In this document: one piece after another, positions 4,893 through 40,105 of the stretch
Layout: each line of letters begins with the position of its first letter
How positions within the stretch are numbered: the first letter of the stretch is position 1
From: a virus
Lineage: Duplodnaviria; Heunggongvirae; Uroviricota; Caudoviricetes
DNA length: 64,000 bases
Reading direction: 5' to 3' (one strand)
IMG/VR virus record: IMGVR_UViG_3300015214_000024
Span: 169,787 to 233,786 of that record
Made by a program: the position numbers and the translations under genes
The notes under the pieces: generated by a model
Databases searched by the model: none
What the model saw: only the letters and a program-made list of their open reading frames with translations
What the model was told of the DNA's origin: nothing

Positions 4893-6452
4893 ATGAAGTT
4901 CAATACACCAGGTCAAGCACCAATTCAATCACAAACGTCACCAAATACCGTTACTCACGAAGGCGCACCATCATATAAGTTTGATTCCATTATGGAACTT
5001 TATATGGCAGTTGCGACCACACTTATGGGTGAACCAAAGTTTTATGAATCAGGTGATGAACGCGCTAAGCGCATTCGCCGTTTGATTTCCAAAGCAGTCC
5101 AATCTGGTGAAATTGAAACTGTAGCAAAGTTGGCAGTTTACTGCCGTGAAACTTTGAACCTACGTTCAGTCCCAATCTTTATCACTGTATCTTTGGCGAA
5201 GGAAATTCGTGATCAAAAGATCGCCTGGGACGGCCTCCGCCGCCTCGCTAACCGGGTTATTCAACGTGCTGACGAAGTTCGCGAAATGTTCGCTGCTGCT
5301 GAGCAAATTTTCGGTGATAACCAGAACAACAAAGTGTTTAAGCGCATTGTTCCAAAGGCTCTCTTAAAGGGCATCGGTGATTCTTTGAACAAGTTTGATG
5401 AATACCAGATTGCCAAGTACAAGGGTGGTTCAGGCGCAGTGTCGTTCAAGGACGTTCTTCGAGTCATTCACCCAAAGCCAGCTAACGAATCAAAGGGAAT
5501 TCTTTTCGCTAAGATTATGAATGATTCTTTGGCCCCAGCTGACACTTGGGAAAATAAGATCTCAAACGAAGGCTCAACGTCTGAAAATTGGCAAGAAATT
5601 GCCAATGACTCAAAGGTTGGTATTATGGCAAAGCTTCGCAATTTGCGCAACTTTGTCAAGCACAAGGTTGATTTGACAAATGTCATCGCACATTTGACCA
5701 ACCCAGTCGCAGTAGCCAACAGCAAGCAATTGCCATTCCGTTGGTACACTGCGTATCGTGAACTTGGCGGTGAAAGTATGAAGCGCAATTGGTATTACCG
5801 CGCACCAACTCCAGAAGTAGTTGCTCCAGCAAACCTTTTGGGTGCTTTGGAAGATGCTTTTGATTTGTCAATTGCAAACTTGCCAGATTTGGGTGATGAT
5901 GTTTTGATTATCGCTGACCAGAGCGGTTCAATGCAGAGCCCAATCAGTCAAAAGAGCACAGTAACTTGTGCGGAAATCGCCGCTGTTTTGGCAGCCGGTG
6001 TTTGGTTCAACCAAACACGCTTAGGTAAGCGCGCTTTTGTGGCCGGCTTTGCTGATCGCGGTAAGGTCTACTCGTGGAGCAATCGTACATCAGCTTTGGC
6101 TGCGGCTAAAGAAATGATGAATACTGAGCTTGGCGGTTCTACTCGAATTGACACGGCTTGGCAGGCTGCTAAAGCTGCTGGTTTGAAACCATCAACTATT
6201 ATCGTCTTGAGCGATATGCAGATGACGGGCTCACATTATGAGCGTTTGATGGATCCAGAAGCTTATGGCTTGGCCAATGTCAACACTCTTAAATTGTCAG
6301 TTAACCTTCAAGGTTATGACAACACGCCATTGGCTGTTAATAACGGCTGGTACCAGCTAACTGGTTGGAGTGAAAAGATCTTCAGCTTCGTTGAAGCTAT
6401 GCGCAATCCAAGCGATGCGATAAATCAGATCAAGAATTCAATCCAACTTTAA
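4893..6452 (+). CDS. rsr: Ro60/TROVE-domain RNA-binding protein with vWA domain
   Basis: RADE, KFDEYQIAKY, LRNLRN, QLPFR motifs; DQSGSM MIDAS motif. Confidence 0.92.
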   Translation: MKFNTPGQAPIQSQTSPNTVTHEGAPSYKFDSIMELYMAVATTLMGEPKFYESGDERAKRIRRLISKAVQSGEIETVAKLAVYCRETLNLRSVPIFITVSLAKEIRDQKIAWDGLRRLANRVIQRADEVREMFAAAEQIFGDNQNNKVFKRIVPKALLKGIGDSLNKFDEYQIAKYKGGSGAVSFKDVLRVIHPKPANESKGILFAKIMNDSLAPADTWENKISNEGSTSENWQEIANDSKVGIMAKLRNLRNFVKHKVDLTNVIAHLTNPVAVANSKQLPFRWYTAYRELGGESMKRNWYYRAPTPEVVAPANLLGALEDAFDLSIANLPDLGDDVLIIADQSGSMQSPISQKSTVTCAEIAAVLAAGVWFNQTRLGKRAFVAGFADRGKVYSWSNRTSALAAAKEMMNTELGGSTRIDTAWQAAKAAGLKPSTIIVLSDMQMTGSHYERLMDPEAYGLANVNTLKLSVNLQGYDNTPLAVNNGWYQLTGWSEKIFSFVEAMRNPSDAINQIKNSIQL

Positions 6453-8965: not shown

Positions 8966-8986
8966 ATGACACGAACTACTAGCTGA
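8966..8986 (+). promoter_or_regulatory. Thr-rich leader peptide MTRTTS upstream of thrS
   Basis: AAGGAG RBS; ATG ACA CGA ACT ACT AGC TGA; hairpin at 8985-9020. Confidence 0.75.
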
Positions 8987-9058
8987 CCATCCAGCAAATC
9001 ACTAGGATTGTTGGATGGTCGTATTCAACATTTTCTAACGTGATTTAATAGGAGATCA

Positions 9059-10243
9059 GTGATGTTATACGATCATCGTAAAATTGGCCGAGAAATGGGC
9101 CTATTTCATATTCAAGAAGACGCCGCAGGCTCAGTATTTTGGCACCCACGCGGCTATGCACTTTACCGTAATATTGAAAATTATATTCGAATGAAACAAC
9201 TTCAGTATGGCTATGACGAAGTCAAAAGTCCACAACTGTATGATGTTTCACTTTGGAAAAAGAGTGGTCATTGGGATCACTTCAAGGAAAATATGTATTC
9301 TATTGAGGATTCAAATTTCTCCTTGAAACCTATGAATTGTCCAGGCCACATTCAAATCTTCAATTCTGACCTAATTTCTTATAAACAACTACCTTTGCGG
9401 CTGGCTGAATTTGGTTGTTGCCATCGTAATGAGCCATCTGGTGCATTACACGGTATAATGCGTGTCCGACAGTTTGTCCAAGATGACGCTCATATTTTTT
9501 GTATGGAAAACCAGATTCAATCAGAAGCATTAGCATTTTGTAAAATGCTTCAGGAAGTTTATGATGATTTTGGATTTAAAAATATCAAAGTAGCCTTAAG
9601 TCTGAGACCGGATGACCGTGCTGGCAATGACGCTGATTGGGATTTGGCCGAACAGGCATTAGAGGAAGCCATCAAGCAGGCCGGGTTTGAATACATTCTC
9701 CAGCCAGGTGAAGGTGCATTTTACGGTCCTAAATTGGAATTTGCACTAATCGACCAAGGCGGCCGTGAATGGCAATGTGGTACCATACAATTAGACTTTG
9801 TTTTGGCTGGACGACTTGGGGCAAAATATGTTGCTCAAGATGGTAGCCAAAAAGTGCCAGTTATTTTACACCGTGCAGTATTGGGTTCATTAGAACGATT
9901 TATTGGTATTCTTTTAGAGCATTATGGTAAGGATTTACCAGTATGGCTATTAAAAGACCAATTTGCTGTTTTGCCAATCAAGCCATCAGTCAATGATTAC
10001 GCTTGCAATGTGAAAGAAGCTGTGCTACAATTTGGCTTTAATGCAGAATTGGATTCTGATGATATTTCTCTTGGTGACAAGATTAAAAAATATTATCATA
10101 TTCCCAATCTCATTATTATCGGAGACCGTGAGGCTAAAAACGGCCAAGTTGTTTGGCGAAAACTTGATGGTTCACAGGAAGTTATTGATTTACATATTTT
10201 TTATGAAAAAGTGAAAAATGTGAAAAATCCGTTGAAAAAGTAA
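9059..10243 (+). CDS. thrS: Threonyl-tRNA synthetase lacking N-terminal editing domains
   Basis: DHRKIG, LKPMNCPGH, RVRQFVQDDAH, GEGAFYGPK, HRAVLGSLERF. Confidence 0.95.
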   Translation: MMLYDHRKIGREMGLFHIQEDAAGSVFWHPRGYALYRNIENYIRMKQLQYGYDEVKSPQLYDVSLWKKSGHWDHFKENMYSIEDSNFSLKPMNCPGHIQIFNSDLISYKQLPLRLAEFGCCHRNEPSGALHGIMRVRQFVQDDAHIFCMENQIQSEALAFCKMLQEVYDDFGFKNIKVALSLRPDDRAGNDADWDLAEQALEEAIKQAGFEYILQPGEGAFYGPKLEFALIDQGGREWQCGTIQLDFVLAGRLGAKYVAQDGSQKVPVILHRAVLGSLERFIGILLEHYGKDLPVWLLKDQFAVLPIKPSVNDYACNVKEAVLQFGFNAELDSDDISLGDKIKKYYHIPNLIIIGDREAKNGQVVWRKLDGSQEVIDLHIFYEKVKNVKNPLKK

Positions 10244-10244
10244 T

Positions 10245-10445
10245 TGACACGGACTAAATAGTGTAGTAAGTTTAGAACATAAGTTGAAACAAATTTTAAG
10301 GAAAGCAGTTACCATTATGTCACATTCAGTTTATCATTATGAATATGAGCGTGAATATCTCCGTCCAGGGGAGAGTTGGTAACGAGTATTTAAAATACTT
10401 CGACTGAACCGATTCAACCCTGGGACTGAAATCCCAGGGTTTTTT
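10245..10445 (+). promoter_or_regulatory. Attenuator 1: promoter, leader 10317-10382 (MSHSVYHYEYEREYLRPGESW), antiterminator and terminator
   Basis: TTGACA promoter; H/Y/E-rich ORF; AACCCTGGGA/TCCCAGGGTT-TTTT terminator. Confidence 0.85.
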
Positions 10446-10454
10446 CGTTTTTGT

Positions 10455-10531
10455 GGTGGCATAACGCAAACAGGTGAGCGGACTGACTGTGAATCAGTTG
10501 TTAGAGGGTTCAAGTCCCTTGTGTCACACCA
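10455..10531 (+). tRNA. tRNA-His(GUG), A73 type
   Basis: Cloverleaf, loop CUGUGAA, CCA. Confidence 0.9.
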
Positions 10532-10550
10532 AACATTATTGGAGTGAAAA

Positions 10551-10739
10551 ATGGAAGTATTTGTAATCAAAACTGAAGAAGTTGAACGAACGCTTAAATT
10601 TTTTACCCAATTGGGTTTAAATTTTGTTCAAGAACAACACGGTAATGGACCAATCCATTACGCTTGTGAACAAAATGGAGCAGTTTTTGAAATTTACCCT
10701 AAGGGTAAAACTGAAGGTTTTAAATTTATAGATATGTAA
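10551..10739 (+). CDS. Small VOC/glyoxalase-like protein
   Basis: FFTQLGL.F..EQHG.GP.HYA...VFEIYP. Confidence 0.65.
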   Translation: MEVFVIKTEEVERTLKFFTQLGLNFVQEQHGNGPIHYACEQNGAVFEIYPKGKTEGFKFIDM

Positions 10740-10744
10740 TTTTT

Positions 10745-10831
10745 GGGTGGTAAAAGTCAGTGGTTCTGATAGGCAGTCTGTAAAACTGCGCCTTTTCGGA
10801 GGGAGTAGTTCGATTCTACTACCACCCACCA
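10745..10831 (+). tRNA. tRNA-Tyr(GUA)
   Basis: Loop CUGUAAA, long V-arm, CCA. Confidence 0.85.
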
Positions 10832-10840
10832 AGAAATTAT

Positions 10841-10916
10841 GGTGACTGAAGTGTTGACGGATACACGCTTGGTTGTGAACCAGGAGTAACGGGCTCGATA
10901 CCCGTTGGTCACCCCA
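10841..10916 (+). tRNA. tRNA-His(GUG), G-1:C73 type
   Basis: Loop UUGUGAA, CCCA end. Confidence 0.9.
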
Positions 10917-10922
10917 AATTAT

Positions 10923-10998
10923 GCAACGGTCTTCTAATGGTTAGGAACCCTGACTTTCAATCAGGCCAATGCGAGTTCAAGTCTCGTCCGTTGCACCA
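10923..10998 (+). tRNA. tRNA-Glu(UUC)
   Basis: Loop CUUUCAA, CCA. Confidence 0.9.
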
Positions 10999-11157
10999 AA
11001 GCTTGTGCTTTGTGACCCTTCATACGCCCGAGGGTCAGAAAAATATCAGGATGCTGATACGGTATTATATACTAAAGGCATTGGGACCGCGCAGTACGCA
11101 CTACGGCTGAGTCATAAGGACTGAATAGTAGATGCTCGGTAGCGGCGAGCAAAATAT

Positions 11158-11229
11158 GGCGCGGAACGCTAGAGGCGGGCGGCTTGCCTTTCAAGCAAGT
11201 GTAAGCGGGTTCGATACCCGTCCGCGCTA
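11158..11229 (+). tRNA. tRNA-Glu(UUC)
   Basis: CUUGC-CUUUCAA-GCAAG arm. Confidence 0.8.
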
Positions 11230-11234
11230 CTACT

Positions 11235-11307
11235 GGCCCGGTAGTTTAGAGGTTAGAACGCGAGGTTTTCACCCTCGAGAGCGGGGTTCGATGTCCCCGT
11301 CGGGTCA
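11235..11307 (+). tRNA. tRNA-Glu(UUC)
   Basis: CGAGG-UUUUCAC-CCUCG arm. Confidence 0.85.
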
Positions 11308-11322
11308 CAAAAAGGAGTTTAT

Positions 11323-11550
11323 ATGAGTAACACTTTTAAGATTGAACGTGCTAGAAAACTTTACAAAAGCGATAAACCGAGTAAAGATATGAAGTTGACA
11401 GGCACTGGGGAAACTTGTATGAATGGTGATCCATTGTTTGTTAATAATGGTGGCCAACGTTGGGGCAACCAACGTAAAATGAGGGCAAAGATGAAAGTTG
11501 ATGCTCGTAAGTCAGAGAGAATGAAGAACAAGAAGATTGATTTGGAATAA
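11323..11550 (+). CDS. Small basic hypothetical protein
   Basis: AAGGAG RBS, K/R-rich ORF. Confidence 0.65.
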   Translation: MSNTFKIERARKLYKSDKPSKDMKLTGTGETCMNGDPLFVNNGGQRWGNQRKMRAKMKVDARKSERMKNKKIDLE

Positions 11551-11558
11551 AAGAATAT

Positions 11559-11647
11559 GGGTGAGCTGCTCAGATGGCGGATGGGCACCGGACTGTAAAT
11601 CCGGCACATAAGAAACATAGTAGGTTCGAATCCTACCTCACCCACCA
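11559..11647 (+). tRNA. tRNA-Tyr(GUA)
   Basis: CCGGA-CUGUAAA-UCCGG, CCA. Confidence 0.9.
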
Positions 11648-11665
11648 AAATGATGGAGATAATGC

Positions 11666-12055
11666 TTGTTTAAAAATTCTAGAAAACAAGGTGATGCTGG
11701 CTTGGGTCAAGCAATAGCTTGGTTGACTATGAAAGGATATGCTATTAGTATTCCACTAACTGACAATCAAGATTATGATCTAGTTGCTGAAATTGACGGT
11801 GATTTAAAGAAAATTCAAGTCAAGACCGGAACTAGAATTAGTGATAATGGTATTGGGATGATCTATCTTAATGTTGATGGGGGAAATCGAAGCGGAACCG
11901 GTAAATTTAAAAATTTAGACGACCAACATTGGGATTATTTATTTGGTTATCATTTGGATACAAAAGAGATTATTTTTATACCTAAAAATGAAATATGCTC
12001 AAAAAGCCAAATCAATTTAGGTGAAAAATATAGAGACTGGATTTCAAAAATCTAG
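11666..12055 (+). CDS. PD-(D/E)XK homing-type endonuclease
   Basis: QGDAG..YDLV..KIQVKT motif of the group I intron-associated family. Confidence 0.8.
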   Translation: MFKNSRKQGDAGLGQAIAWLTMKGYAISIPLTDNQDYDLVAEIDGDLKKIQVKTGTRISDNGIGMIYLNVDGGNRSGTGKFKNLDDQHWDYLFGYHLDTKEIIFIPKNEICSKSQINLGEKYRDWISKI

Positions 12056-12276
12056 TCTTGAAACTAACTTGTAGAGGATCTGGTGAAAGGTATTTTATAC
12101 CGAAGGGACCAGCTATTCTACCGCGAGATGCGAGATCCGACCCCAAGTAAGTGGGAGTCAAACCGGGTAAGATGGCGTAATGGAAACATAAGCGTAGACT
12201 TACTTTGGGGAGATTGGAGGTTGTGCTACCGGCTAAGTTATGTTTGAAACAAGTTCTTACTAAGCTTGTTTCGTTT

Positions 12277-12361
12277 GGGTGATATGACACAGTGGAGGGT
12301 CACCAGTCTGTAAAACTGGCGCCGAAAGGCACGGTAGGTTCGAACCCTACATCACCCACCA
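12277..12361 (+). tRNA. tRNA-Tyr(GUA)
   Basis: CCAGU-CUGUAAA-ACUGG, CCA. Confidence 0.9.
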
Positions 12362-12378
12362 AATTTGAAAGGCTATGA

Positions 12379-12624
12379 ATGATTTTTACTATTGGTAAAA
12401 AAGAATGGTATGATCAATGGATAGTTGAACAAGGCCCGCTTTTTAAAAAACGTGGCAAAGATGATGAATACAGTGGTGGGTCTGCATTTTTATGCATTGG
12501 TAAAGCAATAAAAAATTGTCCGCCTGGATATGCAATTTACATACTTGACACTAATATTGATAATTTGTATGAAGTAAATGGTAATTTGCATATTATAGAA
12601 AGTTGTAGGATTTGTTTAATATGA
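12379..12624 (+). CDS. Hypothetical protein (paralog of 13990-14241)
   Basis: Shared TIG..WY..WI.EQG..FKK.G..Y.GGSA pattern. Confidence 0.7.
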   Translation: MIFTIGKKEWYDQWIVEQGPLFKKRGKDDEYSGGSAFLCIGKAIKNCPPGYAIYILDTNIDNLYEVNGNLHIIESCRICLI

Positions 12625-13022
12625 AAGCAAGTGTTTGTCAAATGTATGTCAATCCAGACGGTGTTATTCTCCGACGTTGTCCAGATATGGGCGAGCATCA
12701 GCAGATGGTTGACCAATGGATTAAAGATGCTAAGATAGAAGGTGAATATTTTGACGACGTTTTCTTCTTTAGTAATAAAGATGATTACAATACTTTAAAG
12801 TTTTTCAAATGATTTGTCCTTATACTTTTGAAGCTTTTAACTTTAAAATAATGGTTAATACTAGGCAAATAATGAAAGATACAGCCTTCTTTGAAGGACT
12901 TGATAGTCAGAATATTGATTTTCGGTTAGGGTGGAATAGTTGGCCACCAGATATGGCAGTTGGTCCTATTTGGTTTAAGACTGAAGAAGACTTAAACATT
13001 GCTAAATTATTATTATAATAAT

Positions 13023-13099
13023 GGCCCCAGCGTCTGACACGGATAGGACACTAGCCTCTCAAGCTGGAGAACCGGGTTCGAGCCCCGGTGGGGCTACCA
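13023..13099 (+). tRNA. tRNA-Glu(CUC)
   Basis: Loop CUCUCAA, CCA. Confidence 0.9.
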
Positions 13100-13382: not shown

Positions 13383-13476
13383 TATGAGTCAAAACTACTA
13401 AAGACGAATGGTAGAGTCAGCCCGCTCTTATACGGGATAATAGCTGGTTCGATTCCAGTTAGTAGTTTTGGCCATA
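13383..13476 (+). ncRNA. tRNA-like RNA with extended acceptor stem, no CCA
   Basis: D, anticodon and T arms closed by a ~17-bp stem. Confidence 0.6.
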
Positions 13477-13623: not shown

Positions 13624-13713
13624 AGCCAGGCGGCGGGAGTAGAACAGTGGTACTTCACCTCCATCCCAGGAGGAGATTGTAGGTTCGATTCCTACCTTGC
13701 CGCCCGTCCTGGC
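13624..13713 (+). ncRNA. tRNA-like RNA (Gly-like) with extended terminal stem
   Basis: CCUCC/GGAGG arm, GUAGGUUCGAUUCCUAC T-arm. Confidence 0.5.
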
Positions 13714-16763: not shown

Positions 16764-17385
16764 ATGCTACGTGGTACACGTTTGATTGAGGGCAAGGAAG
16801 CTCAAACATTTAATGAAGTAATTGATACCTTTCGGAGGTTAGTTCATCCAGTCTGATTTCGAAGAAATCATTGTTCCCAGTATTTGGGAACAAGAAACCT
16901 TTTTGGCCAAAACTGGCCCAGAACTATCTAAACAAATGTGGACCTTTAAGGATAAAGGTGATCGAGACGTTTGTTTGATTCCTGAAGTTACCGGTATTTT
17001 TCAAGAAACTTGGCGTGAAAAATGGTCCAAGTCAATGAAATTCCGTAAAGTGTTTTACGTACAACGCTGTTATAGGTATGAAAGGCCGCAAGCTGGCCGT
17101 TATCGTGAATTTACGCAATTGGGTATTGAAATCCTTGGTAACTATGATAATGGTGATCAAGAGGCTCAAGATTTGTTGAAAGCTGGTCTTGACGCAATTG
17201 GTGTAGAGTATGAATTTGATTCAACCGCGACACGTGGTCTCGGATACTACACTGAGCTTGGTTTTGAAGCTCGTTGCGAATCACTTGGTGCGCAAAAGCA
17301 AGTAGCAGGCGGCGGCCGTTATGCTGAAGGTGTTGGATGGGCTATTGGTGTTGACCGACTGGTTTTAGCTAAAATGAATAAATGA
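16764..17385 (+). CDS. hisS: Minimal histidyl-tRNA synthetase, split by a +1 frameshift at ~16845
   Basis: MLRGTR N-terminus in frame 0; +1 frame gives FEEIIVP, LIPEVT, RYERPQAGRYREFTQ, RGLGYYT, GGGRY, GWAIGVDRL. Confidence 0.85.
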
Positions 17386-20280: not shown

Positions 20281-20292
20281 TTGGAGAATAAT

Positions 20293-20913
20293 ATGACACC
20301 TTTCGAGAAAAAACTTCTTACTCTCCGCCAACAGCTTATTGGTGCCCGATATTACAATGCTCTTACGGCATTGGATTTTGCAATGGCTTACCACACTGGT
20401 ACTCGAAAGGATGGCGTCACTCCTGAATTTCAACATCAGGTCGAAATTGCACTATATGCGCTAACGCTTGCTGATGTAAAATATCGTGAAGAAGTGATCG
20501 CTACTATTATGCTTCACGATGTTCGCGAAGACTATAGTATTACTGATTATGAAATTGCTCATCTTTTTGACAGCAATGAATTTACTCTTCGAGTAAACCA
20601 AGCTGTGGAAAATATGACCAAAGAATGGCGCGGCATTAAAAAGGATGAAGCTCAGCTTTTTGAAGCAATGGCCATTGATCCTATTGCCAGTATTGCCAAA
20701 GGCTGTGACCGAATTCATAATTTGGGATCAATGGTCGGAGTTTTTAAAATTGAGAAACAGAAGGCTTATTTGGAAGAAGTTGACCGGTTATTCATACCGA
20801 TGCTAAAAACAGCTCGAAAGAAATTTGCATATCAGCATAATGCATATATGAATATTCTTCATATGATGCGTAGCCAATGTGATCTCATTAGAGCGATTCA
20901 TGAAGCCACCTAA
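20293..20913 (+). CDS. HD-domain (p)ppGpp hydrolase-like protein
   Basis: H.G.RKDG.TP...H, LHDVRED, K..DR.HN. Confidence 0.8.
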   Translation: MTPFEKKLLTLRQQLIGARYYNALTALDFAMAYHTGTRKDGVTPEFQHQVEIALYALTLADVKYREEVIATIMLHDVREDYSITDYEIAHLFDSNEFTLRVNQAVENMTKEWRGIKKDEAQLFEAMAIDPIASIAKGCDRIHNLGSMVGVFKIEKQKAYLEEVDRLFIPMLKTARKKFAYQHNAYMNILHMMRSQCDLIRAIHEAT

Positions 20914-21334: not shown

Positions 21335-21557
21335 TTGACTCCGGACTAAATACATTATATAAAGTATAAATAACTTTGTAGAAACTTTTATAGGAAAGTG
21401 AATTTAAAATGTTAAACCTAGTACTCAATCCAGTTAATTTGTTAGGACTCAATCCTAATCAATTGCCTGTGGGTGACTCGGGGACAGCATTTTAAAATCT
21501 AAATAAAAGATTTAAATGAAGGTTACCCCGGGAAACGCAAGTTTACCCGGGTTTTTT
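21335..21557 (+). promoter_or_regulatory. Attenuator 2: promoter, leader 21409-21495 (MLNLVLNPVNLLGLNPNQLPVGDSGTAF), antiterminator and terminator
   Basis: TTGACT and TATAAATA promoters; L/N/P-rich ORF; CCCGGGAAAC-GCAA-GTTTACCCGGG-T6 terminator. Confidence 0.87.
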
Positions 21558-21567
21558 ATTGCTTACA

Positions 21568-21689
21568 AGAGTTTAGTTTAGAGTGTGGTGAAATGGTAAA
21601 CACGGGCGGCTAATAACCGCCCCCCACAGAGGAAACGAGCATTTAAATGAACGTTGCTGGTTCGAGTCCAGCCACTCAAAACTAAACTT
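21568..21689 (+). ncRNA. tRNA-like RNA, AAU anticodon, extended acceptor stem
   Basis: GGCGG-CUAAUAA-CCGCC; ~16-bp terminal stem; no CCA. Confidence 0.6.
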
Positions 21690-22243: not shown

Positions 22244-22325
22244 GGGGCTGTGGCTAATGCGAATGGTACAGCTAATAGTTTTAGAAACTATGCTTTTGAG
22301 AGTTCGAGTCTCTCCAGCCCTACCA
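22244..22325 (+). tRNA. tRNA-Leu(UAG), short V-arm
   Basis: AUAGU-UUUAGAA-ACUAU, CCA. Confidence 0.8.
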
Positions 22326-31464: not shown

Positions 31465-31541
31465 CGGGGATTGGCCTAGTCTGGTAAGGCGCTTGCTTTG
31501 GGTGCAAGAGATCGCGAGTTCGAATCCCGCATCCCCGACCA
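31465..31541 (+). tRNA. tRNA-Pro(UGG)
   Basis: Loop UUUGGGU, CCA. Confidence 0.9.
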
Positions 31542-36870: not shown

Positions 36871-37368
36871 GTGAAGATCGCGTTAATTGGTATGCCCACC
36901 AGTGGCAAATCAACAATTTCAAATGAAATCACTAGACTTACTAATTATTCTCATATTGATCTTGATCATATGTTAGAGAACCGATTCGGAACAACATTGC
37001 AAGAATTTATTAATTCATATGGTGAAAATGAATTTGTAGATCAAGAAAACTCATTAATGCTTGAAATTAAATATCCAGAAGATTGCATTATTTCCACAGG
37101 CGGAAGCGTCATTTATGCCACAAGCGCGATGGAAAGGCTGAAAGCTGATGGTGTTCATTTTGTATATTTAAAAACCTCCATTTCAAAATTGGAGAAACGT
37201 TTGCACAACCAACGTGATATGCGTGGCATCATTATGCGCGGCTGTAAAAATTGGTCAGAGCTATTAGCAAATAGAAGTGTACTTTATAGTAAATATGCGG
37301 ATACCGTCATTGAAACTGACGGTTTATCTTTGAGTGATATCAGTCAAAAAATTATTGATCTGATGTGA
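36871..37368 (+). CDS. aroK: Shikimate kinase
   Basis: LIGMPTSGKST, DLD, ISTGGS, R...Y..YAD. Confidence 0.85.
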   Translation: MKIALIGMPTSGKSTISNEITRLTNYSHIDLDHMLENRFGTTLQEFINSYGENEFVDQENSLMLEIKYPEDCIISTGGSVIYATSAMERLKADGVHFVYLKTSISKLEKRLHNQRDMRGIIMRGCKNWSELLANRSVLYSKYADTVIETDGLSLSDISQKIIDLM

Positions 37369-39859: not shown

Positions 39860-40105
39860 TTGACACGGAATAAATAGTTTTGTAAAGTATAAATACATTA
39901 GCGCAGGAAGCGCATTTTAAAAGGAATAGGGAACTTCAAATGTTTACGAAATTTGGACAATTTAAGGGACAGAAAGCTGTTGCGACAGTCGCAGCGGATC
40001 GTATGACCTTTGATTGGGCCATTACGGAGGGTGTTCGAGAATAAAGTTTAAGAAAAAACTTAATTCGAAGGGCACCCGGGAAAAGGAAACTTTCCCGGGT
40101 TTTTT
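39860..40105 (+). promoter_or_regulatory. Attenuator 3: promoter, leader 39940-40044 (MFTKFGQFKGQKAVATVAADRMTFDWAITEGVRE), antiterminator and terminator
   Basis: TTGACA and TATAAATA promoters; ACCCGGGAAA/TTTCCCGGGT-T5 terminator. Confidence 0.87.

Follow-up and report, generated by a model that had tools for sequence, protein, structure and literature searches.

How a phage with a large set of tRNA genes controls their expression is the question raised by this locus; to our knowledge, the regulation of large phage tRNA sets is essentially unknown. The window, which is the whole stretch of DNA that was analyzed (64,000 nucleotides), corresponds to positions 169787-233786 of a 455,147-bp virus record, with a G+C content of 39% and a CheckV rating of complete. 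The window carries about 60 tRNA genes, every one on the + strand, and their neighbors are translation- or RNA-related protein genes (a ThrRS core, a HisRS fragment, a Ro60/TROVE protein, and an HD-domain protein). Matching DNA of this phage is present in landfill metagenomes. A thrS-like ORF terminates just upstream of a compact element, termed unit A here, that precedes a group of His, Tyr, and Glu tRNA genes. With fairly high confidence, and without any experiment, we interpret unit A as a ribosome-mediated transcription attenuator that responds to how His, Tyr, and Glu codons are decoded and gates the tRNA genes for these amino acids. We observed its layout, its matched codons, its alternative pairings, its recurrence within the genome, and its conservation in related phages.

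Unit A lies on the + strand and begins with a sigma-70-like promoter-like site (10244..10272), the transcription start of which is unmapped. The site comprises a -35 element, TTGACA (10244-10249), a 17-nt spacer carrying a shared motif, GGACTAAATA, and a -10 element, TAAGTT (10267-10272). A-tracts are found 5′ of this site, within the 3′ end of the thrS-like ORF, and the promoter motif is also kept in three related sequences (L120, L121, and L129). A ribosome-binding site, AAGGAAAG (10298..10305), is located 11 nt 5′ of the ATG of a leader ORF of 21 codons plus TAA (10317..10382), which translates to MSHSVYHYEYEREYLRPGESW followed by the stop. The layout of ribosome-binding site and short ORF is repeated in three sister units and nine homologues. 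An intrinsic terminator (10416..10445) follows 35 nt 3′ of the leader stop codon. It has a 10-bp stem (10416-10425 with 10432-10441; six of the ten pairs are G-C), a CUGAAA loop, and a T-tract, and is the highest-scoring terminator site in the region. The T-tract is separated from tRNA-His by about 10 nt, a distance too short for a promoter, so we infer that the tRNAs are made by read-through only.

The gated cluster spans 10456..13099 on the + strand, with small ORFs between the tRNAs. ARAGORN and Rfam both recover tRNA-His(GUG) at 10456-10531 and 10842-10916, tRNA-Tyr(GUA) at 10745-10831, 11559-11647, and 12277-12361, tRNA-Glu(UUC) at 10923-10998, 11158-11229, and 11235-11308, and tRNA-Glu(CUC) at 13024-13099, all on the + strand. 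The canonical tRNA genes behind unit A are thus exclusively His (two), Tyr (three), and Glu (four, three UUC and one CUC) up to position 13099, the same two His, three Tyr, and four Glu genes that a first-pass annotation of the sequence had placed behind the leader. Between two of the tRNA-Glu genes (11000-11157) there are about 155 nt without a tRNA call and with only short overlapping ORFs. At the end of the cluster are two tRNA-like genes with abnormal anticodon loops (13393-13468 and 13631-13705), for which ARAGORN gives a four-base “ctta” and a two-base “cc” anticodon. ARAGORN also reports two tRNAs with a CUA anticodon elsewhere in the genome (positions 15281 and 165512). The window also encodes, at 16903-17385, a 160-amino-acid piece of HisRS that has the class II core only.

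The codons of the leader match this cluster. His is encoded by CAT (twice), Tyr by TAT (four times), and Glu by GAA and GAG (twice each). The first-pass annotation had counted two His, four Tyr, and four Glu residues in 21 codons and had paired the use of both GAA and GAG with downstream UUC and CUC tRNAs; its counts, codons, and coordinates are all correct, and the two kinds of Glu codon face three UUC tRNAs and one CUC tRNA. His, Tyr, and Glu make up 10 of 20 residues, against a frequency of 0.118 in the genome as a whole (binomial P = 3e-5). In the sensing window they fill 8 of 12 codons (P = 1e-5), with two His, three Tyr, and three Glu codons in the stretch from about codon 3 to codon 13 (10323-10355, + strand). 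The leader also carries Ser, Val, and Arg codons that have no matching tRNA in the cluster. Only two of 4,689 small ORFs of 15-41 codons in the genome, leader A included, have a combined His, Tyr, and Glu content of at least 50%. The other is a His-rich ORF at position 37325 inside a G+C-rich stretch with apparent coding in another frame or strand; it was rejected as a leader, having no terminator and no tRNA nearby.

The leader RNA has two alternative folds. CCAGGG and GAGUUGGU (10365-10380) pair with ACCGAUUC and CCCUGG (10408-10423), a region that overlaps the terminator 5′ arm, and the 5′ strand of this antiterminator consists of the final leader codons and the first base of the stop codon. 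The pairing had been proposed earlier from the letters alone, and we recovered it as the minimum-energy fold of the nascent RNA (predicted antiterminator, 10365..10423, + strand). When the RNA is folded only as far as the terminator loop, CCAGGG/CCCUGG extends the base helix and the terminator 5′ arm is locked, at -28 kcal/mol. An inner hairpin (10383-10402, + strand) is enclosed by the helices that join the leader tail to the terminator arm. The fold of the full leader has a leader-tail hairpin (CUCC...GGAG), the base helix GAGUUGGU/ACCGAUUC around the inner hairpin, and the terminator. The leader-tail hairpin, CUCC(G)...GGGAG (10359..10375, + strand), serves as segment 1:2 and ties up the G-run of the tail. 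Compared with shuffled sequences, the region of unit A has a folding z of -4.1.

A ribosome was simulated as a masked footprint of 30 nt that was moved codon by codon along the leader. In the nascent fold, the antiterminator stays in place with the A-site at codons 2-13 and is gone from codon 14 through the stop. The first-pass annotation had predicted that a ribosome stalled on His, Tyr, or Glu codons leaves the antiterminator free and that one at the stop codon covers it. The second prediction agrees with the loss of pairing from codon 14 to the stop in silico. The first holds for stalls at about codons 3-13 and fails at codon 14, the last Tyr codon, where the ribosome already covers part of the structure. 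At equilibrium, the full-length RNA prefers the terminator at every ribosome position in unit A, as it does in sister unit B (P ~0.98), which requires the switch to be kinetic. Two bases beside the terminator loop are unpaired and free for terminator nucleation. The ribosome-free nascent RNA also folds as the antiterminator, so that absence of translation would be expected to give read-through. We therefore predict, from in silico folding only, a mutually exclusive antiterminator and terminator whose choice depends on ribosome position. The geometry of the switch is that of classical attenuators.

The sequence-level predictions of a ribosome-mediated attenuator all hold for unit A, and they support the following mechanism, in which translation of the leader, stalling, and regulated termination or read-through are all inferred, with no experiment. 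RNA polymerase would start at the promoter (10244-10272), and a ribosome would load onto the 21-codon leader as the polymerase proceeds. With plentiful His-, Tyr-, and Glu-tRNAs, the ribosome would reach the stop and cover the leader tail, which is the antiterminator 5′ strand; the terminator hairpin would then form and transcription would end 10 nt 5′ of tRNA-His. Scarcity of any one of the three charged tRNAs may stall the ribosome at codons 3-13. The free tail would pair with the terminator 5′ arm, and the polymerase would enter the His/Tyr/Glu tRNA cluster. Possible sources of scarcity are codon-usage mismatch, host tRNA cleavage or shut-off, and starvation. The predicted outcome is that tRNA supply feeds back negatively on tRNA gene expression.

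Unit A has sister units in the same genome. Three copies of the motif TTGAC-N(1-4)-GGAMTAAATA, and no more, are present in the 455 kb, at the head of units A, B, and C. Behind every copy come a ribosome-binding site, a short ORF, a strong terminator, and a tRNA gene; a variant of the motif heads unit D. An AGGAAAG element is found 5′ of leaders A, B, and D and of all homologues, and unit C has AAGGAA / GGGAA instead. Unit B (21335..21557, + strand) has the promoter motif, a ribosome-binding site, a 28-codon leader (21409-21495), a terminator (about 21525-21552), and a T-tract. Its leader contains seven Leu, five Asn, and three Pro codons, and Leu, Pro, and Asn tRNAs follow up to position 31541. 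The Leu codons TTA, CTA, CTC, and TTG match the downstream anticodons UAA, UAG, GAG, and CAA. In unit C (39860..40105, + strand), the promoter motif precedes a leader of 34 codons (39940-40044), which is followed by a terminator (40074-40100) and its T-tract. Behind it are tRNAs for Val, Phe, Ile, Asp, Arg, Ala, Lys, Gln, Met, Trp, Gly, and Thr; leader C uses exactly these 12 isotypes, except for two Glu codons in its tail, and Leu, Pro, Asn, His, Tyr, Ser, and Cys are all absent from its 34 codons. Unit D is found beyond the window, around genome position 300,400 on the - strand, and has the variant promoter, a 15-codon leader, and a terminator. Its leader has seven consecutive Ser codons of the classes TCA, TCC, TCG, and AGT, which cover the anticodons UGA, GGA, and GCU of the four tRNA-Ser genes that follow (UGA twice, GGA, and GCU).

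Each of the four leaders is enriched in the codons of its own tRNA set (P ~1e-5 apiece). In a 4x4 comparison of leaders with tRNA sets, chi-square is 91.5 (P = 8e-16) and the true assignment is the best of 24 permutations. Among 47 strong terminator-like sites in the genome, only those of units A-D abut a tRNA gene. The ribosome scan of the nascent folds places the loss of antiterminator pairing past about codon 13 in A, 19 in B, and 26 in C. No obvious leader or terminator was found for the Cys tRNAs of the genome (262397 and 262635).

Several other elements lie around these units. The unit B terminator is followed first by a tRNA-like gene of 102 nt that contains an insert (21579-21680; Rfam tRNA, 44.5 bits). 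This gene is conserved in two of the unit B relatives (L137 and L139). Its anticodon loop and that of 22244-22325 read AAU, and leader B has no Ile codon. Just 5′ of unit B is a gene for a protein with an HD_4 domain (20281-20913), named by the sources as belonging to the (p)ppGpp synthase/hydrolase superfamily. With 60-88% identical homologues on numerous contigs of 100-950 kb, this is a widespread lineage. An ORF that adjoins the tRNA region (window 4893-6452) has a TROVE (Ro60) domain and a weak VWA match, and its product is a phage-encoded Ro-like RNA-binding protein. A mini-ORF of six codons (Met, Thr, Arg, Thr, Thr, Ser), equipped with a ribosome-binding site of its own, abuts an 11-bp hairpin about 40 nt 5′ of the thrS-like ORF (window 8967-9021). 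This element could be a Thr-sensing leader of the phage ThrRS gene.

Relatives of the phage have the same units. The ThrRS-like protein has relatives in metagenome assemblies that are 76-89% identical, and units A, B, and D each recur in three related metagenomic phages. A thrS gene is followed by unit A in L120, L121, L126/L127, and L129-L132, and by unit D in L122, L123, and L128. The A-type leaders of L120, L126, and L129 retain 10-11 His, Tyr, or Glu residues, and the tRNAs behind the A-type homologues are again those for His, Glu, and Tyr. Changes among these leaders include Arg to His at codon 12 (L120 and L126) or codon 16 (L129), an exchange of Tyr and Glu (L126), Ser to Thr, and synonymous GAA/GAG substitutions. 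In L121 the fourth leader codon (L121:1668-1679) is TGA instead of TCA and the unit is otherwise intact; the TGA is either an assembly error or the mark of a broken copy.

The structure of unit A is conserved as well. Across five sequences, 98.6% of cells in the antiterminator are paired, versus 57-60% when the partner is slid by one. Divergence is low: one-sided variation was found in six pairs of the antiterminator and two-sided variation in none. The sequence of the inner hairpin is replaced in L120 and L129, and the hairpin still forms. The terminator 5′ arm of L126 has a G to C change that is matched in the 3′ arm, and six pairs of the outer helix are kept there only through a one-base slip of the leader tail. 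The small hairpin at 10359..10375 appears both in the RNAalifold consensus and, for each of the four A-type sequences, in the minimum-energy fold of the full-length RNA. In all ten units that were folded, the nascent fold is the antiterminator, formed by the leader tail and stop with the terminator 5′ arm (-21 to -28 kcal/mol), and the distance from stop codon to terminator stem is 31-38 nt. A related contig from a groundwater metagenome has 186 other letters in place of the terminator 3′ half and T-tract (window 10428-10453), a replacement that falls between the leader and tRNA-His.

The D-type leaders have seven Ser codons each and differ only synonymously, including a change from TCC to AGC (TCN to AGY), and every D-type copy retains an antiterminator of the GGGG...CCCC plus AACAG/CUGUU type. 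The unit B homologues (L137, L138, and L139) precede Leu, Pro, and Asn tRNAs, and their leaders carry 13-16 Leu, Asn, or Pro residues, the order of which varies. A called gene of 31 codons is conserved in L120:3043-3138, L122:2281-2376, and L123:7276-7371, where it lies shortly 5′ of RF-1-like and SerRS genes.

Outside these phages we found little. Four sequences with homologues of the neighboring proteins (L133, L134, L135, and L140) have no unit within the stretch examined. Two relatives of the ThrRS in IMG/VR (L001 and L002, 58% and 46% identity) have neither synteny nor a leader. A comparison of GenBank phages with the region gave similarity limited to tRNA and thrS, and a search of viral and metagenome contig collections for the exact pattern of the conserved leader tail had no matches. 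A scan of IMG/VR for the promoter motif gave at least 116 matches, none with a leader and T-tract behind it, and we discarded these as chance matches.

A straw metatranscriptome contains two contigs (99-100% match) that bridge the leader, the terminator, and tRNA-His. They span 10260-10508 and 10307-10532, and the latter stops at the 3′ end of tRNA-His. These contigs fit read-through precursors, which is a weak hint only; from RNA-library contigs, neither transcription itself nor the ends or level of a transcript can be established.

The same observations can be set against other explanations. A translated leader may control read-through and yet sense general translation capacity, not His, Tyr, and Glu tRNAs specifically; the signal would be ribosome availability or any slow-down after host shut-off, and any ribosome delay would lead to read-through. 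This reading gains from the ribosome-free nascent RNA, which is already folded as the antiterminator so that zero translation would also lead to read-through, and from leader C, which with 12 different amino acids looks like a general test. We nevertheless consider it unlikely, since every leader favors the codons of its own tRNA set and cross-assignments score lower, since the relatives retain the amino-acid set while the order shuffles, and since a general sensor can hardly account for a run of seven Ser codons ahead of tRNA-Ser genes. If the terminator were simply leaky and constitutive, insulating the tRNA cluster from the thrS-like gene and setting a fixed tRNA level, the ORF would be there by chance or encode a peptide with another role. 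The strong, equilibrium-favored terminator and the end of the thrS-like ORF just upstream would suit such insulation, but a promoter sits between thrS and the terminator, which thus stops the transcript of that very promoter. A chance reading frame is moreover excluded by the statistics and by the conservation of codon classes, and we judge this explanation very improbable.

Equally hard to credit is antitermination of the lambda Q type, by which a phage factor acting on the spacer element GGACTAAATA would render the polymerase terminator-resistant and the small ORF would be incidental. The order of promoter, short transcript, strong terminator, and genes does resemble lambda PR′-tR′, and the spacer motif, present at these units only, is conserved. 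A Q-type factor leaves unexplained why the codons of the four leaders match the four tRNA sets, why the Ser run changes only synonymously, and why the leader tail and terminator arm have kept their pairing. Such a factor could coexist with attenuation. Each of these rivals accounts for fewer facts than ribosome-mediated attenuation.

Units B, C, and D would apply the feedback that we propose for unit A to the remaining amino-acid groups. We think it likely that the units form a modular regulon of a giant phage, in which each tRNA block is switched on by its own codon-matched leader and the tRNAs in short supply are topped up. If so, the decoding of the infected cell would be measured codon class by codon class, and the top-up may follow, for example, cleavage of host tRNAs by defense nucleases or phage-induced host shut-off. 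Should the units work as predicted, tRNA genes can be under feedback from decoding speed, and giant phages would sort their tRNA genes by amino acid because of the sensors of each block. The phage would then make tRNAs on demand, which bears on current ideas that phage tRNAs make up for depleted host tRNAs or for a codon mismatch. Being short (~200 nt), modular, and reporter-friendly, the units may find use as codon-specific translation sensors.

In a search of the whole window against Rfam, only tRNAs reached the gathering score and no leader family did (His_leader, Trp_leader, Leu_leader, Thr_leader, or others). In the region 10200-10560, no leader family was found at E values up to 5, and there was no T-box match. 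Full-text literature searches and a genome-wide survey of attenuators (PMC2965389) gave us no report of leader-peptide control of tRNA genes. If our interpretation is true, these would be the first tRNA genes under ribosome-mediated attenuation, with a direct read-out of tRNA supply and not of amino-acid supply.

Unit A has likenesses to several known systems. With lambda Q/PR′-tR′ it shares a promoter, a short leader transcript, a strong terminator, a long gene block, and a conserved spacer element; Q-type control needs neither a codon-matched ORF nor an alternative RNA pairing, and no Q factor is known for unit A. As in T-box riboswitches, the state of a specific tRNA would be sensed through a choice between terminator and antiterminator, but the T-box binds uncharged tRNA directly without translation, whereas unit A has a ribosome-binding site and an ORF. 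Leader-peptide control of aminoacyl-tRNA synthetase genes is known from E. coli pheM-pheST, and E. coli pheU/pheV perhaps have such leaders, for which we found no confirmation in the literature. In Bacillus, His leaders are located before hisS paralogues (PMC2965389). Unit A is like these pheST and hisS leaders in that a component of translation is placed under a leader that would sense the cognate charged tRNA; their targets are proteins, whereas those of unit A are tRNA genes, with three amino acids per leader.

Leader-peptide attenuation has been the textbook mechanism of amino-acid operons since the 1970s, with the enterobacterial attenuators trpL, hisL, pheL, leuL, and thrL and the multivalent ilvL/ivbL. 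Like these, unit A has a short ORF rich in the sensed codons, an intrinsic terminator that shares its 5′ arm with the antiterminator, a stop codon in or beside the antiterminator 5′ strand, and a small upstream hairpin of the 1:2 type. The sensing of several amino acids by a single leader is found in ilvL and thrL. Untranslated RNA is predicted to give read-through in unit A, in contrast to termination in the trp leader. Unlike the enterobacterial attenuators, unit A is carried by a phage, and four units divide the amino acids among themselves. The targets also differ, being tRNA genes and small ORFs instead of biosynthetic enzymes, and the feedback would therefore act on tRNA supply rather than on amino-acid supply.
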